Shown here: positions 355 through 59,028 of the stretch, in pieces
Layout: every line of letters begins with the position of its first letter
How positions within the stretch are numbered: the stretch's first letter is position 1
Source of the DNA: an uncultured Gammaproteobacteria bacterium
GTDB taxonomy: Bacteria > Patescibacteriota > Microgenomatia > Levybacterales > GWA1-39-11
Direction: 5' to 3'
NCBI GenBank assembly: GCA_964641355.1
Contig: CAZXND010000002.1
Span: 143,112-207,111 of the forward strand
DNA length: 64,000 bases
Made by a program: the position numbers and the translations under genes
Notes under the pieces: generated by a model
Databases searched by the model: none
What the model was told of the DNA's origin: nothing
What the model saw: the letters and a program-made list of their open reading frames with translations, nothing else

Positions 355-1371
355 TTAATTTTTTTTATTACTTTCATTTTTTCCTATGTACCATTTTAAA
401 GTTCTAAGAAGACCCTCATCTAGCTTTATTCTAGGTTCAAAGTTGATCAATCTTTTGGCCTTTTTGTTATCACTATTTCTTCTAGGACTTCCGTCGGCCT
501 TTGTTTTGTCGAATTTTACATTTGGTCTGTGATTCAAAAAACCCGATCTCATTGAAATATCAATAATTTTCGTTACCAAGTCTTTAACTGAAATCTCCTC
601 GTCGGTACCTAAATTTATCCCATCTGGCCTTGAAAGTTTTTCTACTGCGTTGATCATTCCCTCGGCCATATCTTCTACGTATAAAAATGCTCTTGTTTGC
701 TTTCCGCTACCCCAAACGATTAAGGGATCTTCCGAGTCAAAAATTCTCTTTATTAGGGCTGGTATAACATGGGAGGTTTCTGGATTAAAATGATCGCGCG
801 GCCCGTAACAATTATATGGTCTGACAATCGCAACTTTCATACCAAATTCCTCAGCATAAAATTTTCCCAAAAGCTCAGCCATACGCTTTGCCCATCCATA
901 CCCGCTATTGGTAGGCTCTGGCTCATCTAAAAATCCTTCAGTTTCGGGAGTTGGAACGGAGCAATTTCTTGGATAGATACATGCAGATGAAACAATCAAA
1001 AATCTTTCAACTTTTGCTTTTCTTGCTGCCTCAATTACTAGAGTTTCTACAAGAAGGTTATCCCTCATCATAGTTGCTTGATGAATCTTATTATATTCAA
1101 TTCCACCTACTCGAGCTGCGAGATTCATAACAACACTCATACCACTACACGCTTTTTCTATAGTCTTAACATCTAAAGCATCTCCTTTAATAAAAGTGTA
1201 TTTACCTTTTACGCTTGAGAGATTGGAAATCTTTCCATTTTGCAAATTATCGAGTACCGTTACTAAAGCTCCCCTGTCTATCAGCTTTTCCACCACATGG
1301 CTCCCAATAAATCCAGCTCCTCCAGTAACAAGTACTTTTTTATTCTTCCAAAAACTTTTCATACTATGCAA
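355..1371 (-). CDS. fcl: GDP-L-fucose synthase family (GDP-4-keto-6-deoxymannose 3,5-epimerase/4-reductase; Fcl/ColC-type SDR)
   Basis: N-terminal GxxGxxG Rossmann motif (VLVTGGAGFIGSHV). Blocks SSACIYPR, EPTNSGYGWAK (YxxxK), YGPRDHFNPETSHVIPALIKRIF, IVWGSGKQTRAFLYVEDMA and KADGSPRR align closely with remembered E. coli Fcl blocks ([67 protein letters not shown]). Confidence 0.8.
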   Translation of the reverse strand: MHSMKSFWKNKKVLVTGGAGFIGSHVVEKLIDRGALVTVLDNLQNGKISNLSSVKGKYTFIKGDALDVKTIEKACSGMSVVMNLAARVGGIEYNKIHQATMMRDNLLVETLVIEAARKAKVERFLIVSSACIYPRNCSVPTPETEGFLDEPEPTNSGYGWAKRMAELLGKFYAEEFGMKVAIVRPYNCYGPRDHFNPETSHVIPALIKRIFDSEDPLIVWGSGKQTRAFLYVEDMAEGMINAVEKLSRPDGINLGTDEEISVKDLVTKIIDISMRSGFLNHRPNVKFDKTKADGSPRRNSDNKKAKRLINFEPRIKLDEGLLRTLKWYIGKNESNKKN

Positions 1372-2536
1372 AAACTTTTAAAATTTTTTTTATTTCCCCA
1401 TCTGTTAACTCAGGATTATTTCCAAAATATAAACCTTGATCATGAATTAATCTTGCATTTGAATTAAAATCATTATTTTTTTTAACATATTTTCTATAGA
1501 AAGGTTGGGAAGACATGTCACCTCCAACAATTGGCCTTATCTCTATTAGATCTCTACACTTTTCAACCAATTCATCTCTTATTGCTTTACTTCTACAAAC
1601 TACTGGGAAAGCGAAATTAGAAATAAAATCCATATGACTATATTTTATAGGATAATATAAATCAATTCTTTTGTATATATTTTTTGCTAATTTTAAAAAA
1701 TTTTTGTTTCTTTTTTTCAAAATTTCTCCTATATATTTCATCTGTGTATTTCCAATAAATCCATTTATTTCTGTTGTTCTCAAATTGTACCCTAAGTCAT
1801 AGAATGTGTATCTCGAGTAGAAAGTAGAATTTACATTATGAGCCAATCTAATCATTAACTGTCTTTTTTCTGTTAAATTCCTATCCCATCCATGGGCTCT
1901 AACAAGTTGTAACATAGTTTGAAGATCTTCATCGTCTGTGCACACCGCACCTCCTTCAATAGTCGAAAGATGATGACCAACGTAGAATGAAAATGTTGAA
2001 GCCAAACCAAAATTACCTAATTTATTTTTTTTATAAACGCTGCCTAAAGATTCACAATTATCTTCTATTAGAATTATATTTTTCTTGTTACAAATCTTCT
2101 TAATCTCATCTATATCGTCACAAAATCCTAATAGATTCGTGAGAAACAACACTTTTATAGGATTTTTATTAATTACATTTAATAATTTTTTACTTGAAAT
2201 GTTTAGAGTATCCATTTCAACATCAACAGGTATTACTTTTAATCCCAATTGGATAAGAGGCATTATGTTTGTCGACCAAGTAATCGCAGAAAATCCCACA
2301 GTATCTCCTCTTTTGATTCTGTTTAAGTTTAAAAGAGCCTGAATTATCGCAAGATTCGCAGAACTACCACTATTCATCATTACACAAAACTTTCTTTTTT
2401 GCCATTTAGAAAAATTATTTTCGAATTTTTTGCACTCCACACCGATGCTTAATTGTGAGGATTCTAATATAAATTTCGACAACTGTTTCTTTACCAATTT
2501 TTCTTTATAGAAAGTGGACTTAATAAGTTTTATCAT
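1364..2536 (-). CDS. DegT/DnrJ/EryC1/StrS-family PLP/PMP enzyme, ColD-like sugar 3-dehydratase candidate (His replaces the Schiff-base Lys)
   Basis: 390 aa. Fold-type I motifs (MMNSGSSANLAIIQAL; IEDNCESLG). In the FSFYVGHHLSTIEGG block the position normally holding the PLP lysine is His188 (counted in the ORF). This matches the His188 substitution known for GDP-4-keto-6-deoxymannose 3-dehydratase ColD; E1/DdhC has an analogous His. Confidence 0.65.
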   Translation of the reverse strand: MIKLIKSTFYKEKLVKKQLSKFILESSQLSIGVECKKFENNFSKWQKRKFCVMMNSGSSANLAIIQALLNLNRIKRGDTVGFSAITWSTNIMPLIQLGLKVIPVDVEMDTLNISSKKLLNVINKNPIKVLFLTNLLGFCDDIDEIKKICNKKNIILIEDNCESLGSVYKKNKLGNFGLASTFSFYVGHHLSTIEGGAVCTDDEDLQTMLQLVRAHGWDRNLTEKRQLMIRLAHNVNSTFYSRYTFYDLGYNLRTTEINGFIGNTQMKYIGEILKKRNKNFLKLAKNIYKRIDLYYPIKYSHMDFISNFAFPVVCRSKAIRDELVEKCRDLIEIRPIVGGDMSSQPFYRKYVKKNNDFNSNARLIHDQGLYFGNNPELTDGEIKKILKVFA

Positions 2537-2541
2537 GAAAA

Positions 2542-3483
2542 TTATTCACTAGTATATAAGAATTCAGAATACCAATCAATGGTTTTTTTCAGCCCTTCTT
2601 CTAAATTCACTTTTGGACTCCATCCTAATATTTTTTTTGCCTTTATCGAAGATACATATTGCAGCGGAATTTCTCCGCTTCTTCCATTTTTAATTTTTTT
2701 TACCACAAGCTTCTTACCACTAATTGATATTATTTTCTTTACCAATTTTTCCACGCTAATAATATTTCCACTACCAAAATTAAATATTTGGTTCTCATAA
2801 TTCCTCTTAACATTAAGAGATGCTAATAAAATGTATGCATCTATTGCATCATCGATAAAAAGATAATCTCTCATTATCTTACCTCCCCACATTTTTGGGT
2901 GACTATTTTTAAGAACGTGTTTAATTGTCTTTGGAATAAGTCTTTGAAAATTAAGATCACCCCCGCCATATATATTTACAAATCGAGGAATGAGAATTGG
3001 TATGTCAAAACTTTTTGCATAAGATTGAGCAATCAAATCGGTACATGCTTTAGAAGTTTCATAAGGTCTTGTTGGGAAAGGCATGTAGTCTTCCTTATAG
3101 GGAATTCTATTTTTTCCATAAACGTGGGCTGAAGATGCAATTATTATTTTTTCAAGTTTGTTAACTCTACCACTTTCAAGAATATTTAACGTTCCATTGG
3201 TATTAGTTTTAAATGTCTGAAATGGGTAATCCTGACCACTCTCAACAAGTGCTTCTGAGGCAAGATGAAAACAGATATTAATCTTATTTCTTTTAATAAA
3301 ATTATTAACTAACTCAAAGTTTTGTATATCTGCATTTAAAATTTTTTTACCATCACCGCTTGTTCGAGAAATCCCAAAAACTTCAACTCCGAAGGAAGAT
3401 AAACGACTATTTAATGATTTTCCAATAAATCCACTTATCCCCGTAATTAAAATCCTTTTATTTTTTAAATATTTATTATTCAC
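2542..3483 (-). CDS. NAD(P)-dependent sugar epimerase/dehydratase (extended SDR)
   Basis: ILITGISGFIGKSL Rossmann motif and YETSKACTD (YxxxK) catalytic motif. Lacks the Gmd NHESPRRG block, so not called as GDP-mannose 4,6-dehydratase. Confidence 0.7.
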   Translation of the reverse strand: MNNKYLKNKRILITGISGFIGKSLNSRLSSFGVEVFGISRTSGDGKKILNADIQNFELVNNFIKRNKINICFHLASEALVESGQDYPFQTFKTNTNGTLNILESGRVNKLEKIIIASSAHVYGKNRIPYKEDYMPFPTRPYETSKACTDLIAQSYAKSFDIPILIPRFVNIYGGGDLNFQRLIPKTIKHVLKNSHPKMWGGKIMRDYLFIDDAIDAYILLASLNVKRNYENQIFNFGSGNIISVEKLVKKIISISGKKLVVKKIKNGRSGEIPLQYVSSIKAKKILGWSPKVNLEEGLKKTIDWYSEFLYTSE

Positions 3484-4312
3484 TTCTTTTTAGAAATAGT
3501 CCCAATCCACCAGCAATGACTTCTGAAGATCTAAGAATAATAATTCCAACGGTAATATGTGGCCTTCTAACAAATATTTTCCAGTGTTTAAAATATGATT
3601 TTTTGATAGGAAAGAACTGCTTTGTTGCAATTCCCGGGTATCTTTTCAAATATTTTCTGAATGCCTTACTATAATAAAATTTTTTTCTTACACGTAAGAA
3701 AAAGCTTGTTTTTCCTTCATCATGATAAATTATGCTTTTAACTTTACCAATCTTTCCCATCTTAAGCATTTTATAATGGAAATCAGAGTCCTCAACTCCA
3801 ACAATACTCTTATCATATCCTCCGATTTTTAATGCATCCTTCTTTTTAAAAAATCTACAACATTCATTCATACCATTTTCTAATACGTCATTTACATATC
3901 TTTCTAGCGCAACGCACTTTGTCCAATAACCCTTTCCAATAGAAATTTCAGGTATTGTTAATGCAATAACTTTTTCTTTTTTATACACATTAAAACATTC
4001 TCTTATTACATTCTTTGTTAGATACATGTCTTGGTCAATTGTAAGAATAAATTTACCTCTCGCCTCTTCAATTCCTCTATTTCTTTGAATACTTCTCTCT
4101 GGACCATCAACTATATATTTTGCATATTTCTTAATTATTTTTTTACATTTTTCTCTATTAGCACCACTATAATAAGGACTGTCTACCACTATAATCTCAA
4201 GATTTTTGTATGTCTGCTTTTTTAGAGAAGACAAGCATCTACGAATAGTCCTACCTGAATCGTATGTAGGAATTATCACTGAAATTAAGGGAAACTTATT
4301 TTTTTTTAACAT
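3476..4312 (-). CDS. family 2 glycosyltransferase (GT-A)
   Basis: N-terminal ISVIIPTYDSGRTI and downstream DQDM (DxD-like) motif. Confidence 0.7.
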   Translation of the reverse strand: MLKKNKFPLISVIIPTYDSGRTIRRCLSSLKKQTYKNLEIIVVDSPYYSGANREKCKKIIKKYAKYIVDGPERSIQRNRGIEEARGKFILTIDQDMYLTKNVIRECFNVYKKEKVIALTIPEISIGKGYWTKCVALERYVNDVLENGMNECCRFFKKKDALKIGGYDKSIVGVEDSDFHYKMLKMGKIGKVKSIIYHDEGKTSFFLRVRKKFYYSKAFRKYLKRYPGIATKQFFPIKKSYFKHWKIFVRRPHITVGIIILRSSEVIAGGLGLFLKRSE

Positions 4313-5399
4313 TTTCTATCAACTCCAGGCTTTTTTTTGATGCATCTTTCCATGTCAAACTTTTTGCCCATTGGATCCCATTTTTTTGTAATTTTAAATA
4401 CTCTTTTTTATTTTTGAAAACCTTTAAACCGTATTTAGCCATATCAATTGGCGTATTTCTCTTTAAAACAATTCCTGTTTTTTTATCTAATACTGAATCC
4501 TTAAGCCCTGAAGCACCATAAACAATAGAAGGCGTTCCTTGACTTGCAGCCTCTATTACAACAAGCCCCCACCCTTCCCGAATTGAAGCATGAAGTAAAA
4601 GATGTGCTTTCTTCATTAATGCCAACTTTCTCCTCTCAGAGATTTTGCCAAAAAACTTTACCTTAGATTCAATTGAATAGTTACTAATAATTTTTTTTAG
4701 GTAATTAAAATATTTTTCGTCCCCGCTGCCAATAATCCATAAATTTCCCTCCTTAAGCTCTTTTAGTATATAAAAAAAAGATTTAATTACATCTTCGATC
4801 CCTTTCATCCTCACAACCCTACTAACAAATATAAAAGTTGCCACTTTTTCTTTCTTTGGGAGCGATTTTATCGTTTTATTCTGTGCCGGACAATAAATGG
4901 CTGTACAATTTTCTCTTTTAATGCCGAGTTTAATTAAATCCTTAATGGTTGACTCTGCATCTGTCCAAAAAATAGTATTCCTATAAAAAAGAAAGTATAC
5001 TCTTTCACTGATTTTCCCGATTAAATTCAGAGGAAAAGGGTACATATAGTCCCAAATATTACTAGCTACTTCATGAATAAAAGCTATCTTAGGAACTCGG
5101 ACATACAATGGTGTAAAGAATGGTATTCCATGAATCTCATCGATTACCACATCAAATTTTTTTCTGGATAAAAAATAATAAAATGGCGCAAAAAAATAAA
5201 CCAAAAAAGAATTACCCAACCTAACAAAATAGATACCTTTTTTTCTTTCTTTAAACAAAGAACCAGAAAATCTTGATGTAAACCATGTTACATCATGTCC
5301 CTTTTTAATCCAGGCTTTAGCATGCTCTAGAGTTACTATCTCGGCACCCCCAGACTTAGGATTATAAGGATCTCTCCAGTTTAAAATTAGAATATTCAC
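4296..5399 (-). CDS. family 4 glycosyltransferase (GT-B, retaining)
   Basis: C-terminal EGWGLVVIEAASQGTPSIV (E-x7-E motif), 367 aa. Confidence 0.7.
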   Translation of the reverse strand: MNILILNWRDPYNPKSGGAEIVTLEHAKAWIKKGHDVTWFTSRFSGSLFKERKKGIYFVRLGNSFLVYFFAPFYYFLSRKKFDVVIDEIHGIPFFTPLYVRVPKIAFIHEVASNIWDYMYPFPLNLIGKISERVYFLFYRNTIFWTDAESTIKDLIKLGIKRENCTAIYCPAQNKTIKSLPKKEKVATFIFVSRVVRMKGIEDVIKSFFYILKELKEGNLWIIGSGDEKYFNYLKKIISNYSIESKVKFFGKISERRKLALMKKAHLLLHASIREGWGLVVIEAASQGTPSIVYGASGLKDSVLDKKTGIVLKRNTPIDMAKYGLKVFKNKKEYLKLQKNGIQWAKSLTWKDASKKSLELIENVKKK

Positions 5400-6151
5400 T
5401 TTTTCTTTCTTTTTTTATCGTAATATCTTAAAAACTTTAATCTATAAAAAACGGCAGCTGTATCCCAAAGCATCCAAAAAACAATATTCCAAAAATTTTT
5501 GGAATTTATAGTATTCTCGCCTTTAAAATTTAATTTAACGGGAGCTTCAAAAATTCTTACATACCCAAGTTTATGCGCAACTGCCAAGACTTCGATATCG
5601 AATGCAAATCTCTTGACAACTATTTTTGAAAAAACTTTTTTGGCTACTTTATTTTTAAATATTTTAAGTCCAACTTGGGTGTCTTTAACTTTAAATCCAA
5701 AAAGAACATGTGTTAACTTCCGATAACCCCAAGATAAAATCTTTCTAATCAAAGGATAGGTGACTTTTGACTCAGGGTGCAGTTTACTACCGATTACAAT
5801 ATCAGCATCATTCCAATTCATGATATCAATCATTATAGATATTTCCGTAGGATCCAAATCCATTCCCGCGTCAATAAAGCCGATAATATCTCCTTTCGCC
5901 CTTATAATTCCCTGCCTAATAGCAAATCCCTTTCCTTTATTTTTTTTATATCCAAAAACTTTTATCGACTTGTCTTTTAAGGGTTTTATTTTTTCATAAG
6001 TTTTATCAAAAAATCCATCCACAACGACTAATATCTCGTATCTTTTGAACATTGATGATAAAATCTTATTCAAACTTCTTATATCTTTAACAATAGTCTT
6101 TTCTTGTTTATATGCGGGGACGATTAAAGAAAAAAAACTGGCTTTTTCCAT
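5396..6151 (-). CDS. GT2, DPM1/GtrB-like polyprenyl-phosphate sugar synthase candidate
   Basis: SLIVPAYKQEKTI...VVVDGFFDKT...KNKGKGFAIRQGI...FIDAGMDLDP...GSKL; FKxF and FDIE blocks typical of Dpm1-like enzymes. Confidence 0.6.
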   Translation of the reverse strand: MEKASFFSLIVPAYKQEKTIVKDIRSLNKILSSMFKRYEILVVVDGFFDKTYEKIKPLKDKSIKVFGYKKNKGKGFAIRQGIIRAKGDIIGFIDAGMDLDPTEISIMIDIMNWNDADIVIGSKLHPESKVTYPLIRKILSWGYRKLTHVLFGFKVKDTQVGLKIFKNKVAKKVFSKIVVKRFAFDIEVLAVAHKLGYVRIFEAPVKLNFKGENTINSKNFWNIVFWMLWDTAAVFYRLKFLRYYDKKRKKK

Positions 6152-6215
6152 TACATTGCGAGATTATTATTTGAAGATAATAACAAACAAGAAGACCTGA
6201 TGCAATAATTTATAA

Positions 6216-8583: not shown

Positions 8584-8623
8584 ATTAGCTACTTAGAAAA
8601 GATGCCTATAAATCTTATCATAA

Positions 8624-11400: not shown

Positions 11401-11911
11401 ACTTTTGTCTTAACAGTAAAGATTCACCTACATTTCTTTTTAATTCTAGTTTTTTAACTTCTTTTTTTTCTTCGTTCCAATTAAACTTTTCAGGCAATTC
11501 CTCACTTACTTTAATAAGAGTTTGATAATGTTTTTTTGCAGCTAGTTTTAAAGTATGTTTTTTTTCTTCACTACCATTCTTTCTCACATTTAAGATTTTA
11601 GATGCTTCAATAAAATATACATCTGATTTTCTAAGTGCGTTATAACCAAGTAAATACTGCTTGTATTCAAAAAGTACCTTCGCCTCAACAAGATACTTAT
11701 CTGAAAGCTTAAGATAATAAACGAAATTTCCATAATCACCGAAATACCAAAATTTAGAAATATAGTAATAAAATTGGTTTAGGTTGTAGAATTTACTTCC
11801 TGGAAGAACTGATGGGTATGGAAGCACGTAAGAAGAGTCAGAGTTCGCTAAAACTATTTTTACGTTAAAAAATAAAAGAAAAAAGAAGAACAGTAGATAA
11901 CGCCACATCAA
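11393..11911 (-). CDS. small secreted protein (signal peptide, Tyr-rich N-domain, Lys/Glu-rich C-tail), unknown function
   Basis: N-terminal MMWRYLLFFFFLLFFNVKIVLANS looks like a signal peptide. Tyr-rich stretch YYYISKFWYFGDYGNFVYY. 8-bp overlap with the upstream gene. Confidence 0.45.
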   Translation of the reverse strand: MMWRYLLFFFFLLFFNVKIVLANSDSSYVLPYPSVLPGSKFYNLNQFYYYISKFWYFGDYGNFVYYLKLSDKYLVEAKVLFEYKQYLLGYNALRKSDVYFIEASKILNVRKNGSEEKKHTLKLAAKKHYQTLIKVSEELPEKFNWNEEKKEVKKLELKRNVGESLLLRQKYE

Positions 11912-16590: not shown

Positions 16591-16615
16591 TAATATTTAA
16601 TATATGTGAGCTATC

Positions 16616-26769: not shown

Positions 26770-26792
26770 TTTATAAAACCTAAGAAAGTATA

Positions 26793-38615: not shown

Positions 38616-38622
38616 AATTTAA

Positions 38623-43491: not shown

Positions 43492-43496
43492 TTAAA

Positions 43497-45850: not shown

Positions 45851-45876
45851 GAATATCCAACGCTTAGTGTGTACCT

Positions 45877-51509: not shown

Positions 51510-53832
51510 TTGTCGATCCTAAAATAACTATAAACAATGATATTATAGTGATTTTTAATCCTAATTTAAATGAATCAGAACTAAAAACAAACTTTACCGA
51601 ATGATTTCCGGAAGGGATCAAAATTGCTCTGAAAGCATAGTTAGCTTTAAAGATCTTAGTTTCTTGATTGTCGACAAATGCCTTCCAACCTGGATAATAT
51701 GTGTCTGATAAAAAAAGAAGATTATTTGACTTGGATTCAGTTGTAAATAAGATGCCCTCTGACTTATAAGAAACGAGTTTAACTTTTCCAATAGAACCAC
51801 CTAACTCAGATTCTACTCTTTCTTCTAATATTAAACTTAGATTTGGGTTAAATTCTTTCGAAAAGAAGATTTTTTCAAACTCCTCTTTGGATCTTACAAC
51901 CTTATAAGAGTTAGTCAAAAAGAATCTTGGTACAACTTTTAAGTTTTCGAATATTCTCCAATCATTTCTATCATATATTTTATTAAAATCTTTTGTGGGA
52001 AAAGTTTTTTCCGATGTTCCGTTCTGATATCTGTCTAAGATATACCTCACACCTAGCAAGTTCAACACTTTTTGTCTATATTTATTTTCGGCGAAATCGT
52101 TTTCCCCAAATCCTTGGAAAATTCTTGCATCAGACCGGGTTTCATTGTTAAATAGCGAGGGAAATTCCCCATTTTTTGATAATTCTATAAACTCTCCGTA
52201 GTCTTTTGGGTAAAGCGGATCGTAACCATCAGGAGAATACATGAACAGTTGCGTTGCAAAATTAGCTTCTATATTTGCAGTTCCATAACCCCAAAATCTG
52301 TATATATTCGACTTATTTTTTAAAAAGGAAGAGATTTCTGTTGGTGGATATACCAATAGTGAAGGCACAAAAGGATTAAATTTATTAAAAAAATAAAAAA
52401 GATCAAAAATGGTGATAAAAATAAAAAGATATACATAGTATTTTTTAGCAACTATTCTAGACGAGAGTAAAACGAAACCTAACATAAGAGTAAGTATTAG
52501 ATTTGATAATAAAAAGCTCTTCATATTCATTGGAGATTTTGTAATAAATAAAATCCATCCATAAAATATAAGAAAAAAAACTGGAACCGATGCATAAAAA
52601 AAGTTTCTCCGCTTGTTCCAAACACTATCAATTCCAAACGAAGAAAGAGTCGCAAAGGAGAATGATATTAGAAAAATCGCATTTGCCGGTGAGCTTGTAG
52701 ATAATAGGGGAATTGGTATTTTAAAGAATAATTCAGATAATGGGTTTTTGAAAGTAATCAGAAGCAGAAGAGTTAAAGCCAATAAATAAAATCTAACGAT
52801 CTTATCTTTTTTATAACTCACAATACCTAAAATCGAAAAGAAAAAAGGGATAATTCCAAAATATAATGCCGATCCAGGATAAGATTTTGACAAGAGGAAA
52901 TTTTTAGTAACTGGGTTACCAAAGAAATCTGGAGAGAGAAATAAAATTATTTCTTTAGGTTGTAATAATAAAGTATTAACTAAATAATTATAGGGCTGAT
53001 TACTCCTTGCAGAATTCGAAATTAACTCTAACGTCGGGAGAAGTTGTACTCCTCCAACTAATAATGGGAGGATTATTGCGAAAAATATCAATATTATTTT
53101 ACCTGTATTTTTTTTCTTAAAGGAAAGAGAAATAAATAAAAAATAAAAAAATATGAATGAAAATACTAAGAAAAAAACCTGAATATGCCCAGCGAAAAAA
53201 GAAAATAAAAGTGCTAGAAAAACGCCAATAAGGTAAGATAATTTTATTTTTTTAATCAATTTCTCAAGAAAATATAGTACAAGAGGAAGATAAAGAACTG
53301 AATGAAGAATAGTATTGTACTCAAGAAAAACAGTGAAATATAGAGAGAAAGAAAAAGCAATCGATGCAAAAAGCGAAGCTTCTTTACTTCTCTTTATCTC
53401 CCTTAAATACAGATAAGTAAATAAAAGTGCTAGTAACGGCTGCAATAGAACCTGGATAGTCCAAGCTAAGGTTTGAGGCAAAAAGAAATAGAAGATGTTA
53501 AATGGGTAAAAGATAGAGGACTGAAAATTTGCCAATAGTGGAGCTCCCGAAAAGTTATACGGATTCCACAAAGGGATTTGTCCATTTTTAATCGAGTTTA
53601 TTGAATAAGTCTTCCAGGGAAAAATCTGTCTTGCAGTATCAAAATATTGATCTTTTGACGGATATGTTCCAGGATTAAACCCTAAATAGGAATAGGTTTT
53701 CCAAGGATTGTAGGATGAAATAAGTAAATCTCCAGGAAATGGAACAAAGCCAAAGAAAAAAAATTTATGAAAGAATAATACAATTATAAGAACAAAAAAT
53801 GTCTTACTTATAATTAATTCTTTTAATTTCAT
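51484..53832 (-). CDS. YfhO-family membrane glycosyltransferase, paralog 4
   Basis: IPLWNPYNFSGAPLLANFQSSIFYPFNIFYF; LSPDFFGNPVTKNFLL; C-terminal TYYPGWKAFVDNQETKIFKANYAFRAILIPSGNHSV. Confidence 0.7.
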   Translation of the reverse strand: MKLKELIISKTFFVLIIVLFFHKFFFFGFVPFPGDLLISSYNPWKTYSYLGFNPGTYPSKDQYFDTARQIFPWKTYSINSIKNGQIPLWNPYNFSGAPLLANFQSSIFYPFNIFYFFLPQTLAWTIQVLLQPLLALLFTYLYLREIKRSKEASLFASIAFSFSLYFTVFLEYNTILHSVLYLPLVLYFLEKLIKKIKLSYLIGVFLALLFSFFAGHIQVFFLVFSFIFFYFLFISLSFKKKNTGKIILIFFAIILPLLVGGVQLLPTLELISNSARSNQPYNYLVNTLLLQPKEIILFLSPDFFGNPVTKNFLLSKSYPGSALYFGIIPFFFSILGIVSYKKDKIVRFYLLALTLLLLITFKNPLSELFFKIPIPLLSTSSPANAIFLISFSFATLSSFGIDSVWNKRRNFFYASVPVFFLIFYGWILFITKSPMNMKSFLLSNLILTLMLGFVLLSSRIVAKKYYVYLFIFITIFDLFYFFNKFNPFVPSLLVYPPTEISSFLKNKSNIYRFWGYGTANIEANFATQLFMYSPDGYDPLYPKDYGEFIELSKNGEFPSLFNNETRSDARIFQGFGENDFAENKYRQKVLNLLGVRYILDRYQNGTSEKTFPTKDFNKIYDRNDWRIFENLKVVPRFFLTNSYKVVRSKEEFEKIFFSKEFNPNLSLILEERVESELGGSIGKVKLVSYKSEGILFTTESKSNNLLFLSDTYYPGWKAFVDNQETKIFKANYAFRAILIPSGNHSVKFVFSSDSFKLGLKITIISLFIVILGSTIVLWKYEL

Positions 53833-55469
53833 TTAATTGTTTTTTTGAATATAAATAAAGGAATAAATGTTAAAAATGATAAAGTGCTAAGAATATCAGC
53901 TATTAACCTTACTTTGGTTTCGGTAAATTTTACCTCAACAGAATTAATTCCTCGGGGTACAAAAAAAGTTAATTCCCCTCTATGATTTGGGTCTTGAAAT
54001 TGTACCGGTACCTCCTTTTTATTTACAAACACCTTCCATCCAGGAAAATACTCGGTATGATCCACAACCTTTATTCCATTTTTTGATTTAACTACAAAAT
54101 AATGAAGATTAGACTTCTTAACTAAACTAGTAATATTTCCTTTTCCCGAAATAACCTCCACCCTGCTTTTAGGATATGATTTTGCCGGACCTGCCGACCA
54201 TATTACATCAGTCTCACCATAGTAAGTAGTATTTAAAGGAAAATTCCAGTAATATTTTTCACTTATTTTATCCTCTCCCAGCAGAGGTCTAAAATAATAA
54301 CAATTTAAGACAATAACAAACAAAATTAGCAAGTAAAAAATACTTCTTCTATTAAAAATTCTAAATTCTAAATAAGAAATTGCCGAAAGCGATGATGAAA
54401 AAGAAATGACAGAAAGAATCCTCCATGGAAATTGAAATTGTCTTAAAAGAGAGATCTTTTCCCAAAAAAATTTAGAAACTGGCTGCATAAGGAATAATGA
54501 AACAAATGTTAGAAAAAGAGAAAAGTATATGATTTTTTTTATTTTTGTTCCTCTTTTAAAAAGAACTACAATAGAAAGAAGTATACCCAATACATGAAAA
54601 GCTCCTATTTGAACAGGAATTCCTTCAGTTGAAAGAGTAATTTGATTGGTTAAATTGGGAATAAAAAAGTTGAAAAGAGGTGGAAAGTGTGACATATAAA
54701 TGTTTTTCATAAATAAGTCACCATATGTGTATTTATGATCAACAATAGCGGGAATCCAATAATAAGAAGCGAGACATAAACCAAAAAACAAACTAGCAAT
54801 TGCCCAAAATCGATATTTTCCTGAAAGAAAAAATAGATTGAATAAAAGTGAAATCCCAAAAAATAACAAACTTACAGAATTATGAGAAATTATAAGAAAG
54901 TACACTCCACTAGAAATTATCAAAATGTTTAAAAAATTTATTTTTTTCGAAATCCTTACTGAACCGTAAAGAATCAAGGGTAAAAAAACGTATGCATATA
55001 CTTCACCAAAACTTCCACGCATTAAAATCTCAACAAATCTAAATGGAAAAAACTGATAAAAAACACTTACGAGAACTGCCCTTTTATTATCTTGGAAAAA
55101 TTCTTTAGTAAAATAATACATAAAAACACCTGAAAGTATAAATGAGATTCCAAGAGTTAATTTAAAGGAATTAACCAAACCAAATCCTAAAAAAATAAAC
55201 ACAGAAGAAACTAAATATGGAAAATGGTAAATAAAATTAAAGAGAGGAAGACCATATCCATAATTTAAATCACCAGCCCACCTAACTGGTATTTGAAAGT
55301 CTAAAAGAGCCTTATAAAAAGCGGCCATTCTAGGTAGATGTACGAGTCCATCATGCGTATGTGGAAGATTCGAAGTGGAAAAAAAAGATAGTAAAGGAAT
55401 CGTTGATATTAAAACAATAAAAATAAGATCTATATTTTTTTTAATCCAACTATTTTGGAACGACTTCAT
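53829..55469 (-). CDS. polytopic membrane protein family C, paralog 5
   Basis: LPHTHDGLVHLPRMAAFYKALLDFQIPVRWAGDLNYGYGLPLFNFIYHFP; C-terminal EYFPGWKVFVNKKEV...GINSVEVKF plus terminal TM. Confidence 0.55.
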   Translation of the reverse strand: MKSFQNSWIKKNIDLIFIVLISTIPLLSFFSTSNLPHTHDGLVHLPRMAAFYKALLDFQIPVRWAGDLNYGYGLPLFNFIYHFPYLVSSVFIFLGFGLVNSFKLTLGISFILSGVFMYYFTKEFFQDNKRAVLVSVFYQFFPFRFVEILMRGSFGEVYAYVFLPLILYGSVRISKKINFLNILIISSGVYFLIISHNSVSLLFFGISLLFNLFFLSGKYRFWAIASLFFGLCLASYYWIPAIVDHKYTYGDLFMKNIYMSHFPPLFNFFIPNLTNQITLSTEGIPVQIGAFHVLGILLSIVVLFKRGTKIKKIIYFSLFLTFVSLFLMQPVSKFFWEKISLLRQFQFPWRILSVISFSSSLSAISYLEFRIFNRRSIFYLLILFVIVLNCYYFRPLLGEDKISEKYYWNFPLNTTYYGETDVIWSAGPAKSYPKSRVEVISGKGNITSLVKKSNLHYFVVKSKNGIKVVDHTEYFPGWKVFVNKKEVPVQFQDPNHRGELTFFVPRGINSVEVKFTETKVRLIADILSTLSFLTFIPLFIFKKTIK

Positions 55470-56961
55470 AAAGACTCATATAAGAATCTGAAACACCCTT
55501 TCTGTATTTAGCAACTAATTCTAACGGCCAAGAAGTAGGGGGCATTGTTGTTTGATTGAAAATGAAATACACAGGCATTTTTTTGGCCCTATCAACTAAG
55601 TCAATAGGGATTTCTGGTGGAATTGGATATATTCCTCTTTTCTCTACCTTTTTATTATCTCCAAGATATATCTCAACTGCATAAGTAGGAAGAGAGCCGA
55701 AAGTGCCCTCAGAGGCAACATAAATTTTTTCATTCATTGCTTGTTTCTCAAGATATGCGATTATTTCTTTAGTACCACCACCAGCTGGCCAACCATTAAT
55801 ATATTGTTCTAAATCTGCATAAGGAATTGGGGCATAAGAGATATTACTAATTATAAAATAATCTGATTTAAGCATTAGAAAAACAAAAACCAAAATCACC
55901 AAACCCTTTAGATAATACCCTCTTACTCTTATGCATAAATCAAAAAGTCCATATGCAGCAAGAACTAAAAGCGGCATAGTCATAAAGAAAATAAAACGAG
56001 GATAAAGAACTCTTCCAAACAGAGCTAAAGCAAAAAAAGGTGCTGCAAACCAGATAATCATAAGTAATTTTTCGAAAATAAATTTTCTACTGAAAAATGG
56101 CATCAAAACAAGAATGATTCCTGGAATTGTGAAGTAAGTTATAAGCCAATCAAATTGCCCTCTTAAATTTCCTATTAAAAATCTTGTTGGATGCTCTAAC
56201 CACTCACGAAAAGTGTATACAAAAATCGCGTTTTTATCGTTGATTATATGGTAAAAGGGAGACAATCTTAAAATAGAGTAAATAGCATATGCTAAGACTA
56301 CAGACACAGATGATAAAAAGATCCACTTTATTATTTTTTCAACAATATTCTTTTCTTTGAAATTAAAAAGTAGAATCGAAAAAGGTAAAAGGTAAATAAA
56401 GAAAAAAGCGCTTGTTTTAGTAAGAACTCCGAATCCGATAACCATTCCTAAAATAATTGCTAAATCCAATCTAAGTTTTCTTACTAAAAGAATCTCTAAA
56501 TAAAGTGCCCATATCGCACTTGCGGCAACAATTGAGTCGTAAAGAGCCATTCTATCGTAAACAAGGGCAAATGGGAAAATTAGATATAGGAAGCTTGCAA
56601 ACAAACCTATTTTTTTATTATTAAAAAGTTCCGAAGTAAGAAGATAGAGACCTAAAAGACTTACAAAGCCCGATACAACAGAAACCAATCTTCCAGCAAG
56701 TAAAGGATCTGAGATAAATCTCATAAAAATCATGTCCAGCCATACAAAGGAGGGTTGTTTTCCATCTGTTAGAGAGATAAACCTCCATGCGGCATCAAAC
56801 CTTGCAATCTGCGACCACCTTGTATAAATTGCCTCATCTGTAAATAAAGGAAGAGACATTATATTTATCAATCGAAGAATAAAATATACTACGGCAAAAG
56901 ACAATAAAACAAAAAACGAGATTTTGTTTTTTTTCCAAAAAGCAAGAAGATCTGAAGTCAT
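55450..56961 (-). CDS. ArnT/GT83-like polytopic membrane glycosyltransferase candidate
   Basis: 503 aa. TM1, then SLPLFTDEAIYTRWSQIARFDAAWRFISLTDGKQPSFVWL; about 12 TM helices. Confidence 0.5.
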   Translation of the reverse strand: MTSDLLAFWKKNKISFFVLLSFAVVYFILRLINIMSLPLFTDEAIYTRWSQIARFDAAWRFISLTDGKQPSFVWLDMIFMRFISDPLLAGRLVSVVSGFVSLLGLYLLTSELFNNKKIGLFASFLYLIFPFALVYDRMALYDSIVAASAIWALYLEILLVRKLRLDLAIILGMVIGFGVLTKTSAFFFIYLLPFSILLFNFKEKNIVEKIIKWIFLSSVSVVLAYAIYSILRLSPFYHIINDKNAIFVYTFREWLEHPTRFLIGNLRGQFDWLITYFTIPGIILVLMPFFSRKFIFEKLLMIIWFAAPFFALALFGRVLYPRFIFFMTMPLLVLAAYGLFDLCIRVRGYYLKGLVILVFVFLMLKSDYFIISNISYAPIPYADLEQYINGWPAGGGTKEIIAYLEKQAMNEKIYVASEGTFGSLPTYAVEIYLGDNKKVEKRGIYPIPPEIPIDLVDRAKKMPVYFIFNQTTMPPTSWPLELVAKYRKGVSDSYMSLYEVVPK

Positions 56962-56975
56962 ATTTTGATTATATA

Positions 56976-58145
56976 TTATCGCCTGTATTTAACAAACATC
57001 AAACCTATAATTAACAATGAGACAACAACTCCACCAATATTGATACAAGCAAGGTAATACGGAATTGGATCATTCCAGTTTCCGTATCTTAAATATGGAT
57101 AATAATTCAAAAGAGATGAAATAGAAATAACAACAACAGGGATAAATATAAAATACTTTTTAACAAGAAGAGATGCGAAGGGAAGAGAGAAAAGCAAATA
57201 CCATGGCTGGAAATTTGTTCTAATGGTTGCAATAATAATTGTAAATGTCATAAGAATTAAACTAGCATAAATAACTGTTTCGGTTTTTAGCCTATCACCT
57301 AAAAACTTTTTTCTTAAAATAAATACTAGATATATCGGCGCAAGAAAAAAAGTAACGAATTTAACACCACCTGATATTAAGAAAAGGATAAAAGTCTTCA
57401 TCCACTCTTCTCTGATAAGAAAATAAAACGAAGCCATTGCGAAAAACATCATAACTATATCGTTATGAGAAGAAACCAAAGCTTCAATTAGCACAAGAGG
57501 ATTTAGAGCAAAAAAAGCTGCTCCCAATAATGGATTTTTCTCTTTTGTATACTTGAGTATCTTTTCTATAAAATAAACGCTACCCAAATAACAAATTAAT
57601 GATAAAAATTTAAACAGATAAAAGGTAATAAGAAAGATATTAAACCCAGCAAAAGAAATTGGAATTGTCATACCAAGCCAGGTAGGACCATACGGATAAG
57701 TTCTATGAGTCCATCTCATAAAAGAGAGCATTGGATCCAAAGGATAGTCCAACGCCTTCTTGAAGTAAGGATTATCGTGATAATACGTAAATACTTTCGC
57801 ATCGAAAATATAATTAAACAAATCATATGAAAAAGCGTTGTATGAAAAAAATAGAATGGTGGAAATTAGAACAATTATTGTCCAAAAACTTTTTCTACTT
57901 ATTTTTCCCTGATTAACTAAATAAAGAGTCTTTAGAAATAGTATAAAACCAAAAAATAAAATTATCAGATAAATAGCAGACGACAGAGGTCTTTCAAAAT
58001 AACCAACATATTGAAAATATTTTTCTATGGTTTGATAAATAGAAGCCTGAGAGAGGGTAAGAGATAGGTCAACCTGAGTAAACGAGTATAAGGTTAGCAA
58101 GATTGCAAATAGAACCCAAAGAGGAAAAAATAATCGGTTAAGCAT
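56976..58145 (-). CDS. polytopic membrane protein family D (NPY...YGPTW...HNDIVMM), paralog
   Basis: DLFNYIFDAKVFTYYHDNPY...YPYGPTWLGMT...NPLVLIEALVSSHNDIVMMFF...GGVKFVTFFLAP; collinear with 10291..11400. Confidence 0.5.
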   Translation of the reverse strand: MLNRLFFPLWVLFAILLTLYSFTQVDLSLTLSQASIYQTIEKYFQYVGYFERPLSSAIYLIILFFGFILFLKTLYLVNQGKISRKSFWTIIVLISTILFFSYNAFSYDLFNYIFDAKVFTYYHDNPYFKKALDYPLDPMLSFMRWTHRTYPYGPTWLGMTIPISFAGFNIFLITFYLFKFLSLICYLGSVYFIEKILKYTKEKNPLLGAAFFALNPLVLIEALVSSHNDIVMMFFAMASFYFLIREEWMKTFILFLISGGVKFVTFFLAPIYLVFILRKKFLGDRLKTETVIYASLILMTFTIIIATIRTNFQPWYLLFSLPFASLLVKKYFIFIPVVVISISSLLNYYPYLRYGNWNDPIPYYLACINIGGVVVSLLIIGLMFVKYRR

Positions 58146-59028
58146 TTTTATTTGAGTAAACTCCGGACATTATATTCTTTCTAATCCTTAATAAATCTAG
58201 AACACCTTCTATAGAATCTCTTATTGGGCTTACCCTTCTAGTCTCCACATATAACCACTCAACAGGAACCTCTTTTATTTTGTACTTCTTTTGTTTTGCT
58301 ACATACAGTATTTCAATATCAAACCCAGCAGTTACCGACGATCCACTAATAGATCTAAAACCGTTATGAATTTTTTTAACTTTTTCAAACACATCTCTTC
58401 CCGCTTTTCTTGTAAACATTTTAAATCCACATTGAGTATCTTTTACTTCTCCGATACCTACAAGAAAAGATCTTAGAATTATCATCCCTTCAGCCATTAT
58501 TTTTCTTGATATTGGAGCTCCTCGTCTTGTCCCCGCACGAGATCCGATTACAATATCAAATCCTTCTGAAAAATAAGGAAAAAGTTTTCCTATTTCCTCA
58601 ATCGGTGTTGCCTGATCCATATCTGAAAACAAAATATAATCACCTTTTGCTTCTAGAACTCCTGTAGTTACTGCTCCAGCCTTACCCATATGTTCGTTTT
58701 TTATCAGTTTAAATTTTTTATTTTCTGAAGCAAACTTACTCACAAACTCTCGACTCCCATCTGTTGAACCATCATCAACGACTATAACCTCATAGTTATA
58801 TATCTGTTTTTCCAAATAACTTTTTACTTTTTCAAGAGGTCCCTTCTGAAGATTGGCCATCTCGTTATATGACGGGATAACCACTGAAACTACAACGTCT
58901 TTCACAATACAAATATTATACAAAATAACTAATATCAAATACACAACACTCTGCTTGCCAAAATAAGAGCAAAGACCTATAATGATCGGATGGCAAATCA
59001 TGAAAGCCTTTTCAGACCAGAAAATCAA
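58138..59028 (-). CDS. GT2, DPM1/GtrB-like polyprenyl-phosphate sugar synthase; probably the first gene of the cluster
   Basis: VVSVVIPSYNEMANL...VIVVDDGSTDGS...KNEHMGKAGAVTTGV...FSDMDQATP...DTQCGFKMF. The track ORF start at 59028 overlaps the divergent plus-strand gene by 39 bp. An in-frame GTG at 58905 would give a canonical MKDVVVSVVIPSYNE N-terminus and is preceded by TGTATAAT. Confidence 0.6.
   Translation of the reverse strand: MIFWSEKAFMICHPIIIGLCSYFGKQSVVYLILVILYNICIVKDVVVSVVIPSYNEMANLQKGPLEKVKSYLEKQIYNYEVIVVDDGSTDGSREFVSKFASENKKFKLIKNEHMGKAGAVTTGVLEAKGDYILFSDMDQATPIEEIGKLFPYFSEGFDIVIGSRAGTRRGAPISRKIMAEGMIILRSFLVGIGEVKDTQCGFKMFTRKAGRDVFEKVKKIHNGFRSISGSSVTAGFDIEILYVAKQKKYKIKEVPVEWLYVETRRVSPIRDSIEGVLDLLRIRKNIMSGVYSNKNA
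58955..58989 (+). promoter_or_regulatory. candidate sigma70-type promoter giving a leaderless transcript for the P-loop kinase gene
   Basis: TTGCCA (58955-58960), 17-nt spacer, TATAAT (58978-58983), then 6 nt to the ATG at 58990. No SD possible in that spacing. Confidence 0.35.

Follow-up and report, generated by a model that had tools for sequence, protein, structure and literature searches.

The window, a stretch of 64,000 nucleotides of DNA from an uncultivated, ultra-small member of Candidatus Levybacteria (CPR), harbours 45 closely spaced genes in a run of 58.7 kb. Forty-four consecutive ORFs (≥150 aa) were listed at 355–59028, 43 of which locate on the minus strand and one (g18, 19954–21747) on the plus strand, in agreement with the original prediction of a co-directional run of forty-odd genes over about 58 kb. 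Gene junctions are mostly 4–8-nt overlaps or gaps of less than 65 nt, the ORF lengths totalling 58,524 nt versus a locus span of 58,674 nt, and the overlapping stop and start codons suggest co-expression. The sole sizeable gap (285 nt) contains a plus-strand gene for a 74-aa DUF5652 protein that the earlier gene list had missed. At the left edge a partial cupin-fold ORF leaves the window, so that the cluster may extend leftward. The start of g44 is probably at 58860 rather than at the longest-ORF start, based on the Logan gene call, and that of g38 probably lies about 31–33 codons downstream of the longest-ORF start, near 49840–49846, based on N-terminal comparison. The following genes were identified:

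1–377, minus: partial ORF, cupin fold, possible sugar-nucleotide isomerase/epimerase (six-frame translation; weak cupin/OxdC match, 7e-6)
355–1371, minus: g01, SDR epimerase/reductase, GDP-fucose-synthase-like (Pfam Epimerase 6.5e-60; NCBIfam below curated cutoff)
1364–2536, minus: g02, DegT/RfbH-like PLP sugar aminotransferase or dehydrase (Pfam DegT_DnrJ_EryC1 6.6e-60; NCBIfam RfbH-like 206 bits, below cutoff)
2542–3483, minus: g03, NDP-hexose 4,6-dehydratase-like SDR (Pfam; NCBIfam CDP-glucose 4,6-dehydratase 3.5e-44, below cutoff)
3476–4312, minus: g04, GT2 (GT-A), one C-terminal TM helix (Pfam, TM prediction, NCBIfam)
4296–5399, minus: g05, GT4 (GT-B) (Pfam)
5396–6151, minus: g06, DPM1/ArnC/GtrB-like GT2, no TM helix; candidate polyprenyl-phosphate sugar synthase
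6216–7535, minus: g07, Wzx-like MOP flippase, 10 TM (Pfam Polysacc_synt)
7525–8583, minus: g08, GT4 (Pfam)
8624–10294, minus: g09, GT-C family C (PTPS_related, 'HDG' loop motif) (PF10131 35.3 bits, above cutoff; paralogy; family fold)
10291–11400, minus: g10, GT-C family D (MptA/MptB-like, GT87-related) (TIGR03459 MptA 1.3e-8; 33% identity to g43)
11393–11911, minus: g11, 172-aa secreted or anchored protein, DUF5667-like (Pfam 1.3e-4, sub-threshold)
11908–12879, minus: g12, UDP-glucose 4-epimerase GalE (TIGR01179 376 bits, cutoff 262)
12876–13664, minus: g13, GT2, subfamily with g30 and g34 (Pfam, BLASTP, NCBIfam)
13661–15319, minus: g14, GT-C family A (PMT_2/ArnT-like, DE loop motif) (paralogy to g16, 1e-103; family A alignment)
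15307–16590, minus: g15, GT-C-like singleton, WDQ loop motif (sub-threshold PMT_2/EpsG)
16616–18280, minus: g16, GT-C family A, backbone gene (PMT_2 35.2 bits; in 54 related loci)
18277–19911, minus: g17, GT-C family A, backbone gene (PMT 59.5 and PMT_2 46.2 bits; in 58 related loci)
19954–21747, plus: g18, PMT_2-type GT-C, opposite strand (PMT_2 30.7 bits)
21744–23372, minus: g19, GT-C family A (paralogy to g17, 9e-95; alignment)
23365–25086, minus: g20, GT-C family without Pfam/NCBIfam match; invariant H..YPDE.DN after TM1
25096–26814, minus: g21, GT-C family A (paralogy, alignment)
26793–27398, minus: g22, SAM-dependent methyltransferase, probable sugar O-methylation (Pfam Methyltransf_23/11)
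27419–28645, minus: g23, GT87-family GT-C (GT87 31.8 bits, above cutoff; hhalign to family D)
28652–30295, minus: g24, GT-C family A (PMT_2 40.8 bits; paralogy)
30298–32712, minus: g25, YfhO-family GT-C (family B) (YfhO 88 bits)
32679–33395, minus: g26, DPM1/ArnC/AglJ-like GT2, no TM helix; candidate polyprenyl-phosphate sugar synthase; overlaps g25 start
33392–34318, minus: g27, GT2 (Pfam, NCBIfam)
34321–36531, minus: g28, YfhO-family GT-C, backbone gene (YfhO 102 bits; in 36 related loci)
36528–37595, minus: g29, GT4 (Pfam)
37653–37877, plus: DUF5652 gene, 74 aa, 2 TM, antisense to cluster (ORF; Pfam DUF5652 1e-20)
37881–38615, minus: g30, GT2 (Pfam, NCBIfam)
38623–40929, minus: g31, YfhO-family GT-C (YfhO 67 bits)
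40913–42595, minus: g32, GT-C family C (PTPS_related)
42592–43491, minus: g33, GT2, rhamnosyltransferase-like (below cutoff) (Pfam, NCBIfam)
43497–44399, minus: g34, GT2 (Pfam, NCBIfam)
44396–45850, minus: g35, Wzx-like MOP flippase, 11 TM (Polysacc_synt_3 1.5e-46)
45877–46617, minus: g36, DPM1/ArnC-like GT2, no TM helix (Pfam, NCBIfam)
46590–48281, minus: g37, GT-C family C (PTPS_related 59.1 bits)
48278–49939, minus: g38, GT-C family C (PTPS_related 32.4 bits)
49818–51509, minus: g39, GT-C family A (PMT_2 33.6 bits)
51484–53832, minus: g40, YfhO-family GT-C (YfhO 89.4 bits)
53829–55469, minus: g41, GT-C family C (paralogy to g32, 2e-97; alignment)
55450–56961, minus: g42, PMT_2-type GT-C singleton, backbone gene (PMT_2 51.9 bits; in 33 related loci)
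56976–58145, minus: g43, GT-C family D (MptA/MptB-like), backbone gene (PF26314; MptA 3.5e-12, MptB 1.5e-5; in 38 related loci)
58138–59028, minus: g44, DPM1/PgfS-like GT2, first gene; 240 aa if start at 58860 (Pfam, NCBIfam)

By Pfam, the locus encodes 10 GT2 (predicted had been more than 10), three SDR epimerase/dehydratases and one DegT-type PLP enzyme, as well as the anticipated three GT4, two Wzx-like MOP flippases and one SAM methyltransferase. About two-thirds of the locus is made up of genes for GT-C proteins, which correspond to the roughly 23 large polytopic proteins foreseen: 23 non-Wzx proteins possess 5–12 TM helices each according to a crude hydropathy method. All-versus-all BLASTP reproduced the proposed PMT_2/ArnT-like family A (seven members: g14, g16, g17, g19, g21, g24, g39), YfhO family B (four: g25, g28, g31, g40) and 'HDG' family C (five: g09, g32, g37, g38, g41), the latter corresponding to Pfam PTPS_related. 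The suggested three-membered 'HND' family D comprises g10 and g43, with g23 (GT87) as a distant third only (hhalign 78%), and the four further proteins are the singletons g15, g18, g20 and g42.

Pfam gathering cutoffs were passed by 15 of the 23 proteins (PMT/PMT_2, YfhO, PTPS_related, GT87), g14, g19, g21 and g41 were placed by paralogy, and g10 and g43 via MptA/B profiles. No Pfam or NCBIfam profile matched g20, and g15, with sub-threshold matches only, appears to be the weakest GT-C assignment. The GT-C fold was recovered by structure comparison with ArnT among the top structural matches, and AF2 models of g20 and g32 display about 12–13 helices and, at the C-terminus, a mixed or beta domain. 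GT-C enzymes typically possess 8–13 TM helices, their C-terminal portion lying outside the membrane. Family alignments revealed an Asp or Asp-Glu invariant shortly after TM1 in every GT-C family (DE in family A), and the loop carrying this acidic motif would face the outside of the membrane. TIGR03459 (MptA) matched g43 with 45.9 bits (cutoff 439) and g10 with 34.2 bits, likewise below the curated cutoff, and MptB matched g43 with 23.7 bits (cutoff 40); this would denote a superfamily-level relation only, and the precomputed PF26314 match of g43 backs the broader MptA/MptB-like family.

A row of many membrane ORFs of similar length, six of them without Pfam match at first pass, could also arise from mis-assembled collapsed paralogs, decaying duplicates or transporters, a reading that retains practically no probability. 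Paralogs within the locus are just 26–38% identical (BLASTP) and their orthologues are kept across species; positions 13365–35086 and 54227–64000 are colinear at 99.5–100% in three independent Logan assemblies (SRR8893623, SRR8893624, SRR29948353), and chimera formation or collapse is therefore ruled out. Internal stops are absent, changes between strains are 42 synonymous versus 24 non-synonymous, and fold searches yielded GT-C enzymes, transporters appearing at negligible probability only. Assembly, divergence, conservation and fold results thus refute this reading.

Four of the GT2 (g06, g26, g36, g44) show the greatest similarity to DPMS, ArnC and GtrB, as the original prediction had it; their NCBIfam matches all fall below curated cutoffs (PgfS being among the best for g44 and g26), and TM prediction found none of the TM or amphipathic extensions of GtrB/ArnC/DPMS, both of which weigh against the pathway proposed below. 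No window protein matched GtrA (PF04138), and there is no space for a missed 120-aa gene except that of DUF5652. GtrA fusions occur in the g20 family and, together with the co-located DPM1-like GT2s, lend indirect support to polyprenyl-phosphate-linked sugars as putative GT-C donors. A Wzx, sugar-nucleotide and glycosyltransferase gene set is present (g07, g35, GalE, g01–g03, GT2s, GT4s), in which GalE was identified at equivalog level and g02 is nearer RfbH/PseC than ArnB (NCBIfam).

In relatives, the backbone from g44 to g05 is retained in order and adjacency across dozens of species beside lon, including the lon|g44 border and the inverted orientation of g18. Around it, extra GT-C genes are gained or lost in about five defined slots that vary independently.

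There is a slightly better than even chance that the region is an enlarged version of a cell-envelope glycan locus that is conserved throughout Candidatus Levybacteria and operates in several steps. Cytoplasmic enzymes would provide activated sugars, including GalE and a 4,6-dehydratase/PLP enzyme/reductase trio that may, at family level, form a deoxy or amino-deoxy hexose. On a polyprenyl carrier at the inner membrane face, six ordinary GT2 and three GT4 would assemble one or more oligosaccharides, to be flipped by one or both Wzx-like proteins. The four soluble DPM1/ArnC/GtrB-like GT2s, by homology, would form a few polyprenyl-phosphate monosaccharides; since the locus lacks a GtrA-type flippase, a Wzx-type protein would flip them, in line with the proposal for Streptococcus pyogenes GacK. 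At the outer face, the 23 GT-Cs of at least six sequence families would each add a sugar at a specific glycan position, as fold and loop motifs suggest, few donors thus serving many acceptor- or linkage-specific transferases, and the methyltransferase may add O-methyl groups. The elaborate extracytoplasmic glycosylation system originally envisaged is thus supported. Given the shared backbone and the variable slots, the product is probably a species- or strain-specific surface glycan.

Its main acceptor is most likely a lipid- or wall-anchored glycopolymer. Pfam searches of the window proteins yielded no match to Bac_transf, Glycos_transf_4 (MraY/WecA) or Wzz and a single, sub-threshold Wzy_C match (0.0049, g16); no initiating phosphoglycosyl transferase, Wzy polymerase, chain-length regulator, LCP ligase or LtaS was recognisable, nor were Tag/Tar or rhamnan genes, so that, judged from gene content, the window lacks a complete polymer pathway. 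GT-Cs of the YfhO and PMT types can act on proteins or on polymers (PMC12041528), and family membership therefore leaves the acceptor unfixed. It is conceivable, if unlikely, that proteins are the main acceptors. In that case, the GT-C array would O-glycosylate surface proteins (type IV pilins, S-layer, sortase substrates, secreted toxins) at regions rich in Ser/Thr, after the models of actinobacterial PMT and of streptococcal YfhO-type PgtC2/PgfM1 with PgfS and epimerase PgfE. In its favour, g17 exceeds the PF02366 (PMT) cutoff (59.5 versus 22.7 bits; g24 and g39 are weaker), the PMT-type 'DE' motif occurs in family A, g18, g42 and g20, and giant Rhs/Tc-like secreted proteins with Pro/Thr-rich linkers adjoin GT-C genes in two related loci. 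In streptococci, enzymes of the YfhO family glycosylate disordered regions rich in Ser/Thr, and sub-modules such as g26–g25 and GalE resemble the Pgf operon, which comprises a GT-A, an epimerase and two YfhO GT-Cs (PMC12041528). The Streptococcus mutans Pgf operon and S. pyogenes GtrB/PgtC2 likewise act on extracytoplasmic substrates. However, Pgf-type operons encode or neighbour acceptor adhesins and possess two GT-Cs, whereas no candidate acceptor protein is encoded within the window, and two Wzx, nine ordinary GT2/GT4 and MptA/B- and GT87-like enzymes better match polymer building. No protein O-glycosylation system is known to use anywhere near 23 different transferases. MIR and PMT_4TMC domains were not found in window proteins (Pfam), which would speak against eukaryote-type PMT membership only; bacterial PMTs likewise lack MIR.

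Equally improbable is that one genomic island keeps together envelope-glycan pathways that are independent of each other, namely two or more Wzx-dependent units and several GT-A/GT-C modules decorating different acceptors. The two Wzx genes, the four separate DPM1-like GT2s, each beside different GT-C genes, and the independent slot variation are compatible with this, as are g18 and the DUF5652 gene, which divide the minus-strand genes into three or more transcription units; in Lactococcus, GT-A/GT-C pairs separately serve LTA, rhamnan and pellicle (PMC8035078). Yet the conserved backbone order, the stop/start overlaps and the far lower number of donor synthases (4) than of GT-Cs (23) argue against it.

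The locus shares traits with several known systems. In Gram-positive three-component systems (CsbB/GtcA/YfhO; GtlA/GtlB; GacI-GacJ-GacK-GacL; lactococcal CsdAB/CD/EF), a GT-A synthesises C55-P-sugar, which is moved by a flippase, and the sugar is then transferred outside the membrane by a polytopic GT-C bearing an acidic loop motif (PMC8035078). The locus shares with them YfhO-family members, and its candidate donor synthases and Wzx-like proteins would match the variant of TM-less GT-A plus Wzx-type flippase (GacI/GacK). In these systems, however, each module has a single GT-C and a genome carries one to three modules, either scattered or joined to a polymer cluster, whereas here 23 GT-Cs of at least six families share one locus with just four candidate donor synthases, without a GtrA-type flippase or a recognisable LTA/WTA/rhamnan acceptor pathway. 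The proposed pairing of few donors with many GT-Cs resembles Gram-positive teichoic-acid/CWPS decoration and the mycobacterial/corynebacterial assembly of LM/LAM and arabinogalactan (Ppm1; PimE, MptA, MptB, MptC; EmbA/B/C, AftA-D). The MptA/B matches here are, in contrast, far below curated cutoffs, and Emb/Aft-type arabinosyltransferase families, a decaprenyl-phospho-arabinose pathway and PIM anchor genes are absent from the locus; in mycobacteria the genes are scattered across a genome of 4 Mb, whereas those described here form one locus in a genome of likely about 1 Mb. Wzx/Wzy O-antigen and capsule clusters likewise combine sugar-nucleotide, GT2/GT4 and Wzx genes co-directionally, and in Gtr-type serotype-converting modules GT-C-type add-ons diversify the product and differ between strains; unlike in Wzx/Wzy clusters, Wzy, Wzz and an initiating transferase were not detected in the window, and GT-C genes are not accessory. 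ArnC-like GT2s and ArnT-like PMT_2 GT-Cs recall the Arn pathway of lipid A modification, but ArnA formyltransferase, ArnD and ArnE/F are missing from the locus, and CPR bacteria are regarded as monoderm, without lipid A.

The gene content of the locus points to a sugar coat of unusual complexity that varies between species and is made outside the cell membrane. Tentatively, a single 'glycan assembly line' with a cassette structure may occupy about 5–8% of a roughly 1-Mb genome in Levybacteria and perhaps other Microgenomates. Its GT-Cs, about 10 to more than 20 in number and including families absent from current databases, would draw on a few lipid-phosphate sugars to build a hypervariable surface glycan wholly outside the membrane. 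As GT-C cassettes enter or leave fixed slots, the glycan would diversify in a serotype-like manner, and this would govern how these episymbionts attach to hosts and evade phages. If true, a minimal cell would possess, condensed into a single locus, a counterpart of mycobacterial LAM/AG assembly. Among the smaller genes, g11 is syntenic with g12 and g10 in relatives, and the DUF5652 gene occupies the same place in 18 related loci.

The glycosylation supercluster proposed by the original prediction (355-59028) was confirmed by ORF listing, Pfam and BLASTP, and its reading as a system of polytopic membrane glycosyltransferases (GT-C) working with lipid-linked sugars is supported, the enzyme roles being assigned by homology. 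Overall, 44 ORFs of at least 150 aa (g01-g44, numbered from left to right) were detected, 43 of which locate on the minus strand. They are mostly joined by 4-8-nt overlaps or gaps of <65 nt, and their lengths sum to 58,524 nt over a span of 58,674 nt. The predicted 23 large polytopic membrane proteins were found in the same number by Pfam, hydropathy and BLASTP; together they comprise 13,008 aa (~39 kb by added ORF lengths, two-thirds of the locus). Three GT4, two Wzx-like flippases and one SAM methyltransferase were likewise recovered by Pfam. The GT2 array is also present, its size being 10 by Pfam rather than the more than 10 originally counted.

Genes of the cluster and its flanks (cluster genes: Pfam scan of every ORF; membrane families: see text)
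1-377 (-): partial cupin-fold ORF running past the left window edge, 23-nt overlap with the end of g01
g01, g03, g12: SDR epimerase/dehydratases
g02: DegT-type PLP enzyme
g04, g06, g13, g26, g27, g30, g33, g34, g36, g44: GT2 (10)
g05, g08, g29: GT4 (3)
g07, g35: Wzx-like MOP flippases (2)
g11: DUF5667-like small protein
g22: SAM methyltransferase
37653-37877 (+): DUF5652 gene, antisense to the cluster, 74 aa, 2 TM, Pfam 1e-20
Polytopic membrane proteins (23), 5-12 TM segments each by hydropathy prediction, comprising the following five lines
g14, g16, g17, g19, g21, g24, g39: family A, PMT_2/ArnT-like (7), ~550 aa, 27-38 % identity
g25, g28, g31, g40: family B, YfhO (4), 736-804 aa
g09, g32, g37, g38, g41: family C, Pfam PTPS_related (5), ~555 aa
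g10, g43: family D (2), MptA/MptB-like, 33 % identical, motifs 'SYD.FNY' and 'HND'
singletons: g15, g18, g42 (PMT_2-like), g23 (GT87), g20 (no match)
58990-59757 (+): AAA_18/cytidylate-kinase-like P-loop protein, divergent from g44
59747-60106 (-): 119-aa unannotated ORF
60202-60276 (+): tRNA-Glu (anticodon CTC), between cluster and lon
60288-62684 (-): Lon protease
62810-63882 (-): two small membrane proteins, one sCache-like

The G+C content of the window is ~30 %, the cluster averaging ~30 % versus 36-37.5 % in the lon region (60-64 kb), a flank of which the window holds 5 kb. At the left edge, the partial cupin ORF indicates that the cluster probably extends beyond the window; it has generic cupin matches only and was not assignable to FdtA/QdtA-type ketoisomerases.

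An assembly chimera or collapsed paralogs had been named as a possible source of the gene array. Window positions 13365-35086 and 54227-64000 are colinear and gap-free in the Logan assemblies of three runs (100, 99.99 and 99.5 % identity to the window), and paralog divergence is too large for a collapsed-repeat artefact, which was rejected. The source samples are of the SRR8893623 type (groundwater, 0.1-0.2 um fractions). The 67 differences of the variant in SRR29948353 include 42 synonymous and 24 non-synonymous codon changes and no stops, which points to purifying selection. Since g18 is convergent with g19, and the one sizeable gap between cluster genes (285 nt) contains the DUF5652 gene in antisense orientation, at least three minus-strand transcription units are indicated. 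Consensus promoters (78 found, 92 expected from shuffles) and terminators (8 versus 8.2) are no more frequent in the window than by chance, and the units are therefore defined by gene orientation. No RNA was detected in the cluster by Rfam, tRNA-Glu outside it being the sole RNA gene by ARAGORN and Rfam, and a tandem-repeat scan of the cluster revealed no repeats of the phase-variation type.

Paralog families of the membrane proteins were defined by all-vs-all BLASTP and alignments, which reproduced the predicted sizes of the PMT/ArnT-like (7), YfhO (4) and HDG (5) families. From the proposed HND family of three, g10 and g43 form a clear pair, g23 being only a distant third (hhalign 78 %). Families B and C are mutually related (hhalign 97.6 %). 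A 'DE' after TM1 is invariant among the seven members of family A, as is the Asp of the 'HDG' motif among the five of family C. GT-C gathering thresholds of Pfam are exceeded by 15 of the 23 proteins; g14, g19, g21 and g41 show strong paralogy to Pfam-assigned GT-Cs (BLASTP E 1e-50 to 1e-103). The family D proteins g10 and g43 match the NCBIfam models MptA and MptB far below curated cutoffs, g43 also having a precomputed match to PF26314 (MptA_B_family). The weakest case is g15 (PMT_2, 22.3 bits versus a threshold of 26.1; weakly linked by BLAST to g42 and g16). Profile searches of the PDB yielded weak matches for family A (STT3, 1e-3; ArnT, 4.5e-3) and none for families B, C and D; sequence searches being nearly blind here, two structures were predicted. 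Pfam, paralogy and these models uphold the GT-C assignments, and the alternative that the membrane proteins are transporters was rejected on the same combined, partly modelled grounds.

Protein g20 has no match in Pfam or NCBIfam and no significant hhalign relation to families A, B or C. At least 427 close homologues exist, every one labelled 'hypothetical', and a profile search of 1.84 billion representatives retrieved 1,228 clusters at 50 % identity, 170 of them with E <= 1e-30. The motif H..YPDE.DN after TM1 is invariant in the family. Among 11 distant members tested (661-714 aa, profile match starting after ~residue 130), 10 have a GtrA/DPMS_TM domain at the N terminus (E 1e-18 to 1e-26). 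These flippase::GT-C fusions tie the g20 family to polyprenyl-phosphate sugar pathways; another member matches PMT_2 at 1.2e-8. We read the g20 family as a probable GT-C family, distantly related to PMT_2, that is absent from current domain-library annotation. The fusions (~670-715 aa) are the metagenome representatives P0303, P0310, P0314, P0315, P0318-P0322 and P0326; one GtrA-fused member is named 'putative flippase GtrA' by JGI.

On the donor side, the four predicted DPM1/GtrB-like GT2s (g06, g26, g36, g44) form one subfamily of ~240 aa by BLASTP, and their homology was borne out by a profile matching Pyrococcus Dol-P-Man synthase (1.4e-32), ArnC (6.7e-27) and GtrB (9e-27), which rank above most other GT2 structures; a good score was also obtained for chondroitin synthase, over the N-terminal half only. 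Best NCBIfam models are AglJ, ArnC, PgfS, PpgS and Dol-P-hexose transferase, all below curated cutoffs. Hydropathy indicated no TM segment in the four proteins, and the locus holds no GtrA-type gene. The combination of soluble GT-A, Wzx-type flippase and GT-C has a precedent in GacI/GacK/GacL (PMC8035078). The position of the DUF5652 gene just upstream of the g29 orthologue is kept in 18 related loci; speculatively, its product may accompany a soluble GT-A as a small GacJ-like membrane protein. Among the sugar-nucleotide enzymes, g12 is GalE (above the NCBIfam curated cutoff), and g03, g02 and g01 look, at family level, like a 4,6-dehydratase, an RfbH- or PseC-like PLP enzyme and a reductase for a deoxy or amino-deoxy hexose. 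An Arn (L-Ara4N) pathway was rejected: g02 is nearer to RfbH/PseC than to ArnB, neither g01 nor g03 resembles ArnA, and ArnD and ArnE/F are missing.

Related loci were collected with single-protein queries. Orthologues of g17 (48-59 % identity) occur in 51 GTDB species genomes, a set that does not contain the source genome; where the title is informative, the host is given as Candidatus Levybacteria/Levyibacteriota or 'Patescibacteria group'. Clear Levybacteria-type loci also reside in many contigs titled 'uncultured Gammaproteobacteria bacterium', Eisenbacteria, Acidiferrales or Sulfotelmatobacter, apparently MAGs that are mislabelled, submitted in bulk or contaminated. Relatives of g43 were found in 290 metagenome contigs. 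Mapping ORFs of the g17 and g43 loci onto the window proteins revealed a common backbone with variable slots: lon - (few small ORFs) - g44 - g43 - g42 - [slot] - g38 - g37 - g36 - g35(wzx) - g34 - g33 - [slot] - g30 - DUF5652(antisense) - g29 - g28 - g27 - g26 - [slot] - g17 - g16 - [slot] - g13 - g12 - [slot] - g08 - g07(wzx) - g06 - g05. Many relatives keep lon next to g44, separated by 0-8 small variable ORFs. GT-C number varies between loci, from 3 (L044, L046, L047) to 12 (L022, from a complete 762,565-bp chromosome) per ~21 kb. Each window GT-C has a reciprocal-best orthologue (maximum 38-61 %) closer than its nearest window paralog (27-38 %); this makes the paralogs old, and differences in copy number are explained by genes being differentially gained and lost, not by tandem duplication in the recent past. 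Set against the two complete Levybacteria chromosomes encountered (0.76 and 1.14 Mb), 58.7 kb would amount to 5-8 % of a genome.

Variable slots of related loci further contain polytopic families missing from the window: ~500 aa (18 copies), ~650 aa (13 copies, 11-14 TM) and DUF2079 (examples: L002 7438-8931, L020 14182-15741, L002 769-2754, L004 8044-9996, L009 8515-9933). The ~500-aa and ~650-aa families have no Pfam match, and single-sequence hhalign revealed no link of the extra families to those of the window; they may be additional GT-C-like families. Amid the GT-C genes of L002, a 713-aa polytopic protein with C-terminal PBP_dimer (2e-13) is encoded (2744-4885, +), which clusters by BLAST with ~385-404-aa membrane proteins (L047 16645-17802, L008, L041) that fill the g11-g09 slot.

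Given the observed gene content, GT-C fold, loop motifs, donor-synthase homology, synteny and selection, a mechanism is plausible in which the cytoplasmic arm (GT2/GT4, Wzx) would generate lipid-linked oligosaccharide(s), and four polyprenyl-phosphate monosaccharide donors would be made and then flipped, probably by a Wzx-type protein. Outside the membrane, the 23 GT-Cs would extend, branch and decorate the glycan, with g22 methylating sugars. The 4:23 ratio of donors to transferases resembles that of mycobacterial LM/LAM/AG assembly. It is less like Firmicutes modules, where donor and transferase are paired one to one (PMC8035078). YfhO enzymes of Bacillus and Listeria act on teichoic acids (PMC8035078), those of streptococci on Ser/Thr-rich protein regions (PMC12041528). 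The Wzx/GT2/GT4 arm, together with the MptA/B- and GT87-like enzymes, favours a glycopolymer acceptor. Protein O-glycosylation is a serious rival, and glycopolymer and protein glycosylation may both occur. Directly beside GT-C genes of two relatives (L105 6755-12286, +; L009 456-5975, -), giant secreted Rhs/Tc-toxin-like proteins (~1,840 aa) are encoded, with SpvB, TcdB_midN, RHS repeats, FG-GAP, C-terminal CBM96 or CARDB and Pro/Thr-rich linkers; a role as glycoprotein acceptors is possible, as is one as unrelated polymorphic toxins.

We know of no characterised locus with a GT-C density near that observed here; the mycobacterial emb/aft region holds about six GT-Cs in ~35 kb. The ~59-kb locus equals the whole Mycobacterium tuberculosis genome in GT-C number, implying that these cells invest heavily in surface glycans. 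CPR/Patescibacteria represent a large part of bacterial diversity, have tiny genomes, and their cultivated members live attached to host cells; to our knowledge, little is known about their surface make-up and means of host recognition. The locus provides a defined, lineage-wide genetic marker of surface-glycan diversity in Levybacteria and yields at least one sizeable GT-C family (g20 type) beyond Pfam and NCBIfam. With 23 divergent enzymes and apparently four common donors, it also forms a natural catalogue for acceptor-specificity rules in an enzyme class that is, as far as we know, poorly understood. A full-text literature search retrieved no description of GT-C-rich or YfhO/PMT clusters in CPR/Patescibacteria; a survey of CPR protein families refers only to membrane families that lack annotation and are enriched in Microgenomates (PMC6744442). 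Component enzymes and pathway logic are already known, and the system is not categorically new; its novelty lies in its scale, in the cassette architecture within a single locus, in its occurrence in a CPR host and in a GT-C family that lacks annotation.

The exact g32 protein (40913-42595) is absent from a collection of 5.8 billion proteins (best match 59 %), in which g20 from the same contig has a 100 % match; a gene-calling or indexing gap is the probable cause. The 122-nt overlap of g38 (48278-49939) with g39 (49818-51509) probably stems from a start called too early, alignment with paralogs suggesting a g38 start ~31-33 codons downstream of that of the longest ORF. The longest-ORF start of g44 (58138-59028) is probably over-called as well: in an independent assembly, g44 comprises 240 aa with its start at 58860 and then does not overlap the neighbouring g45.
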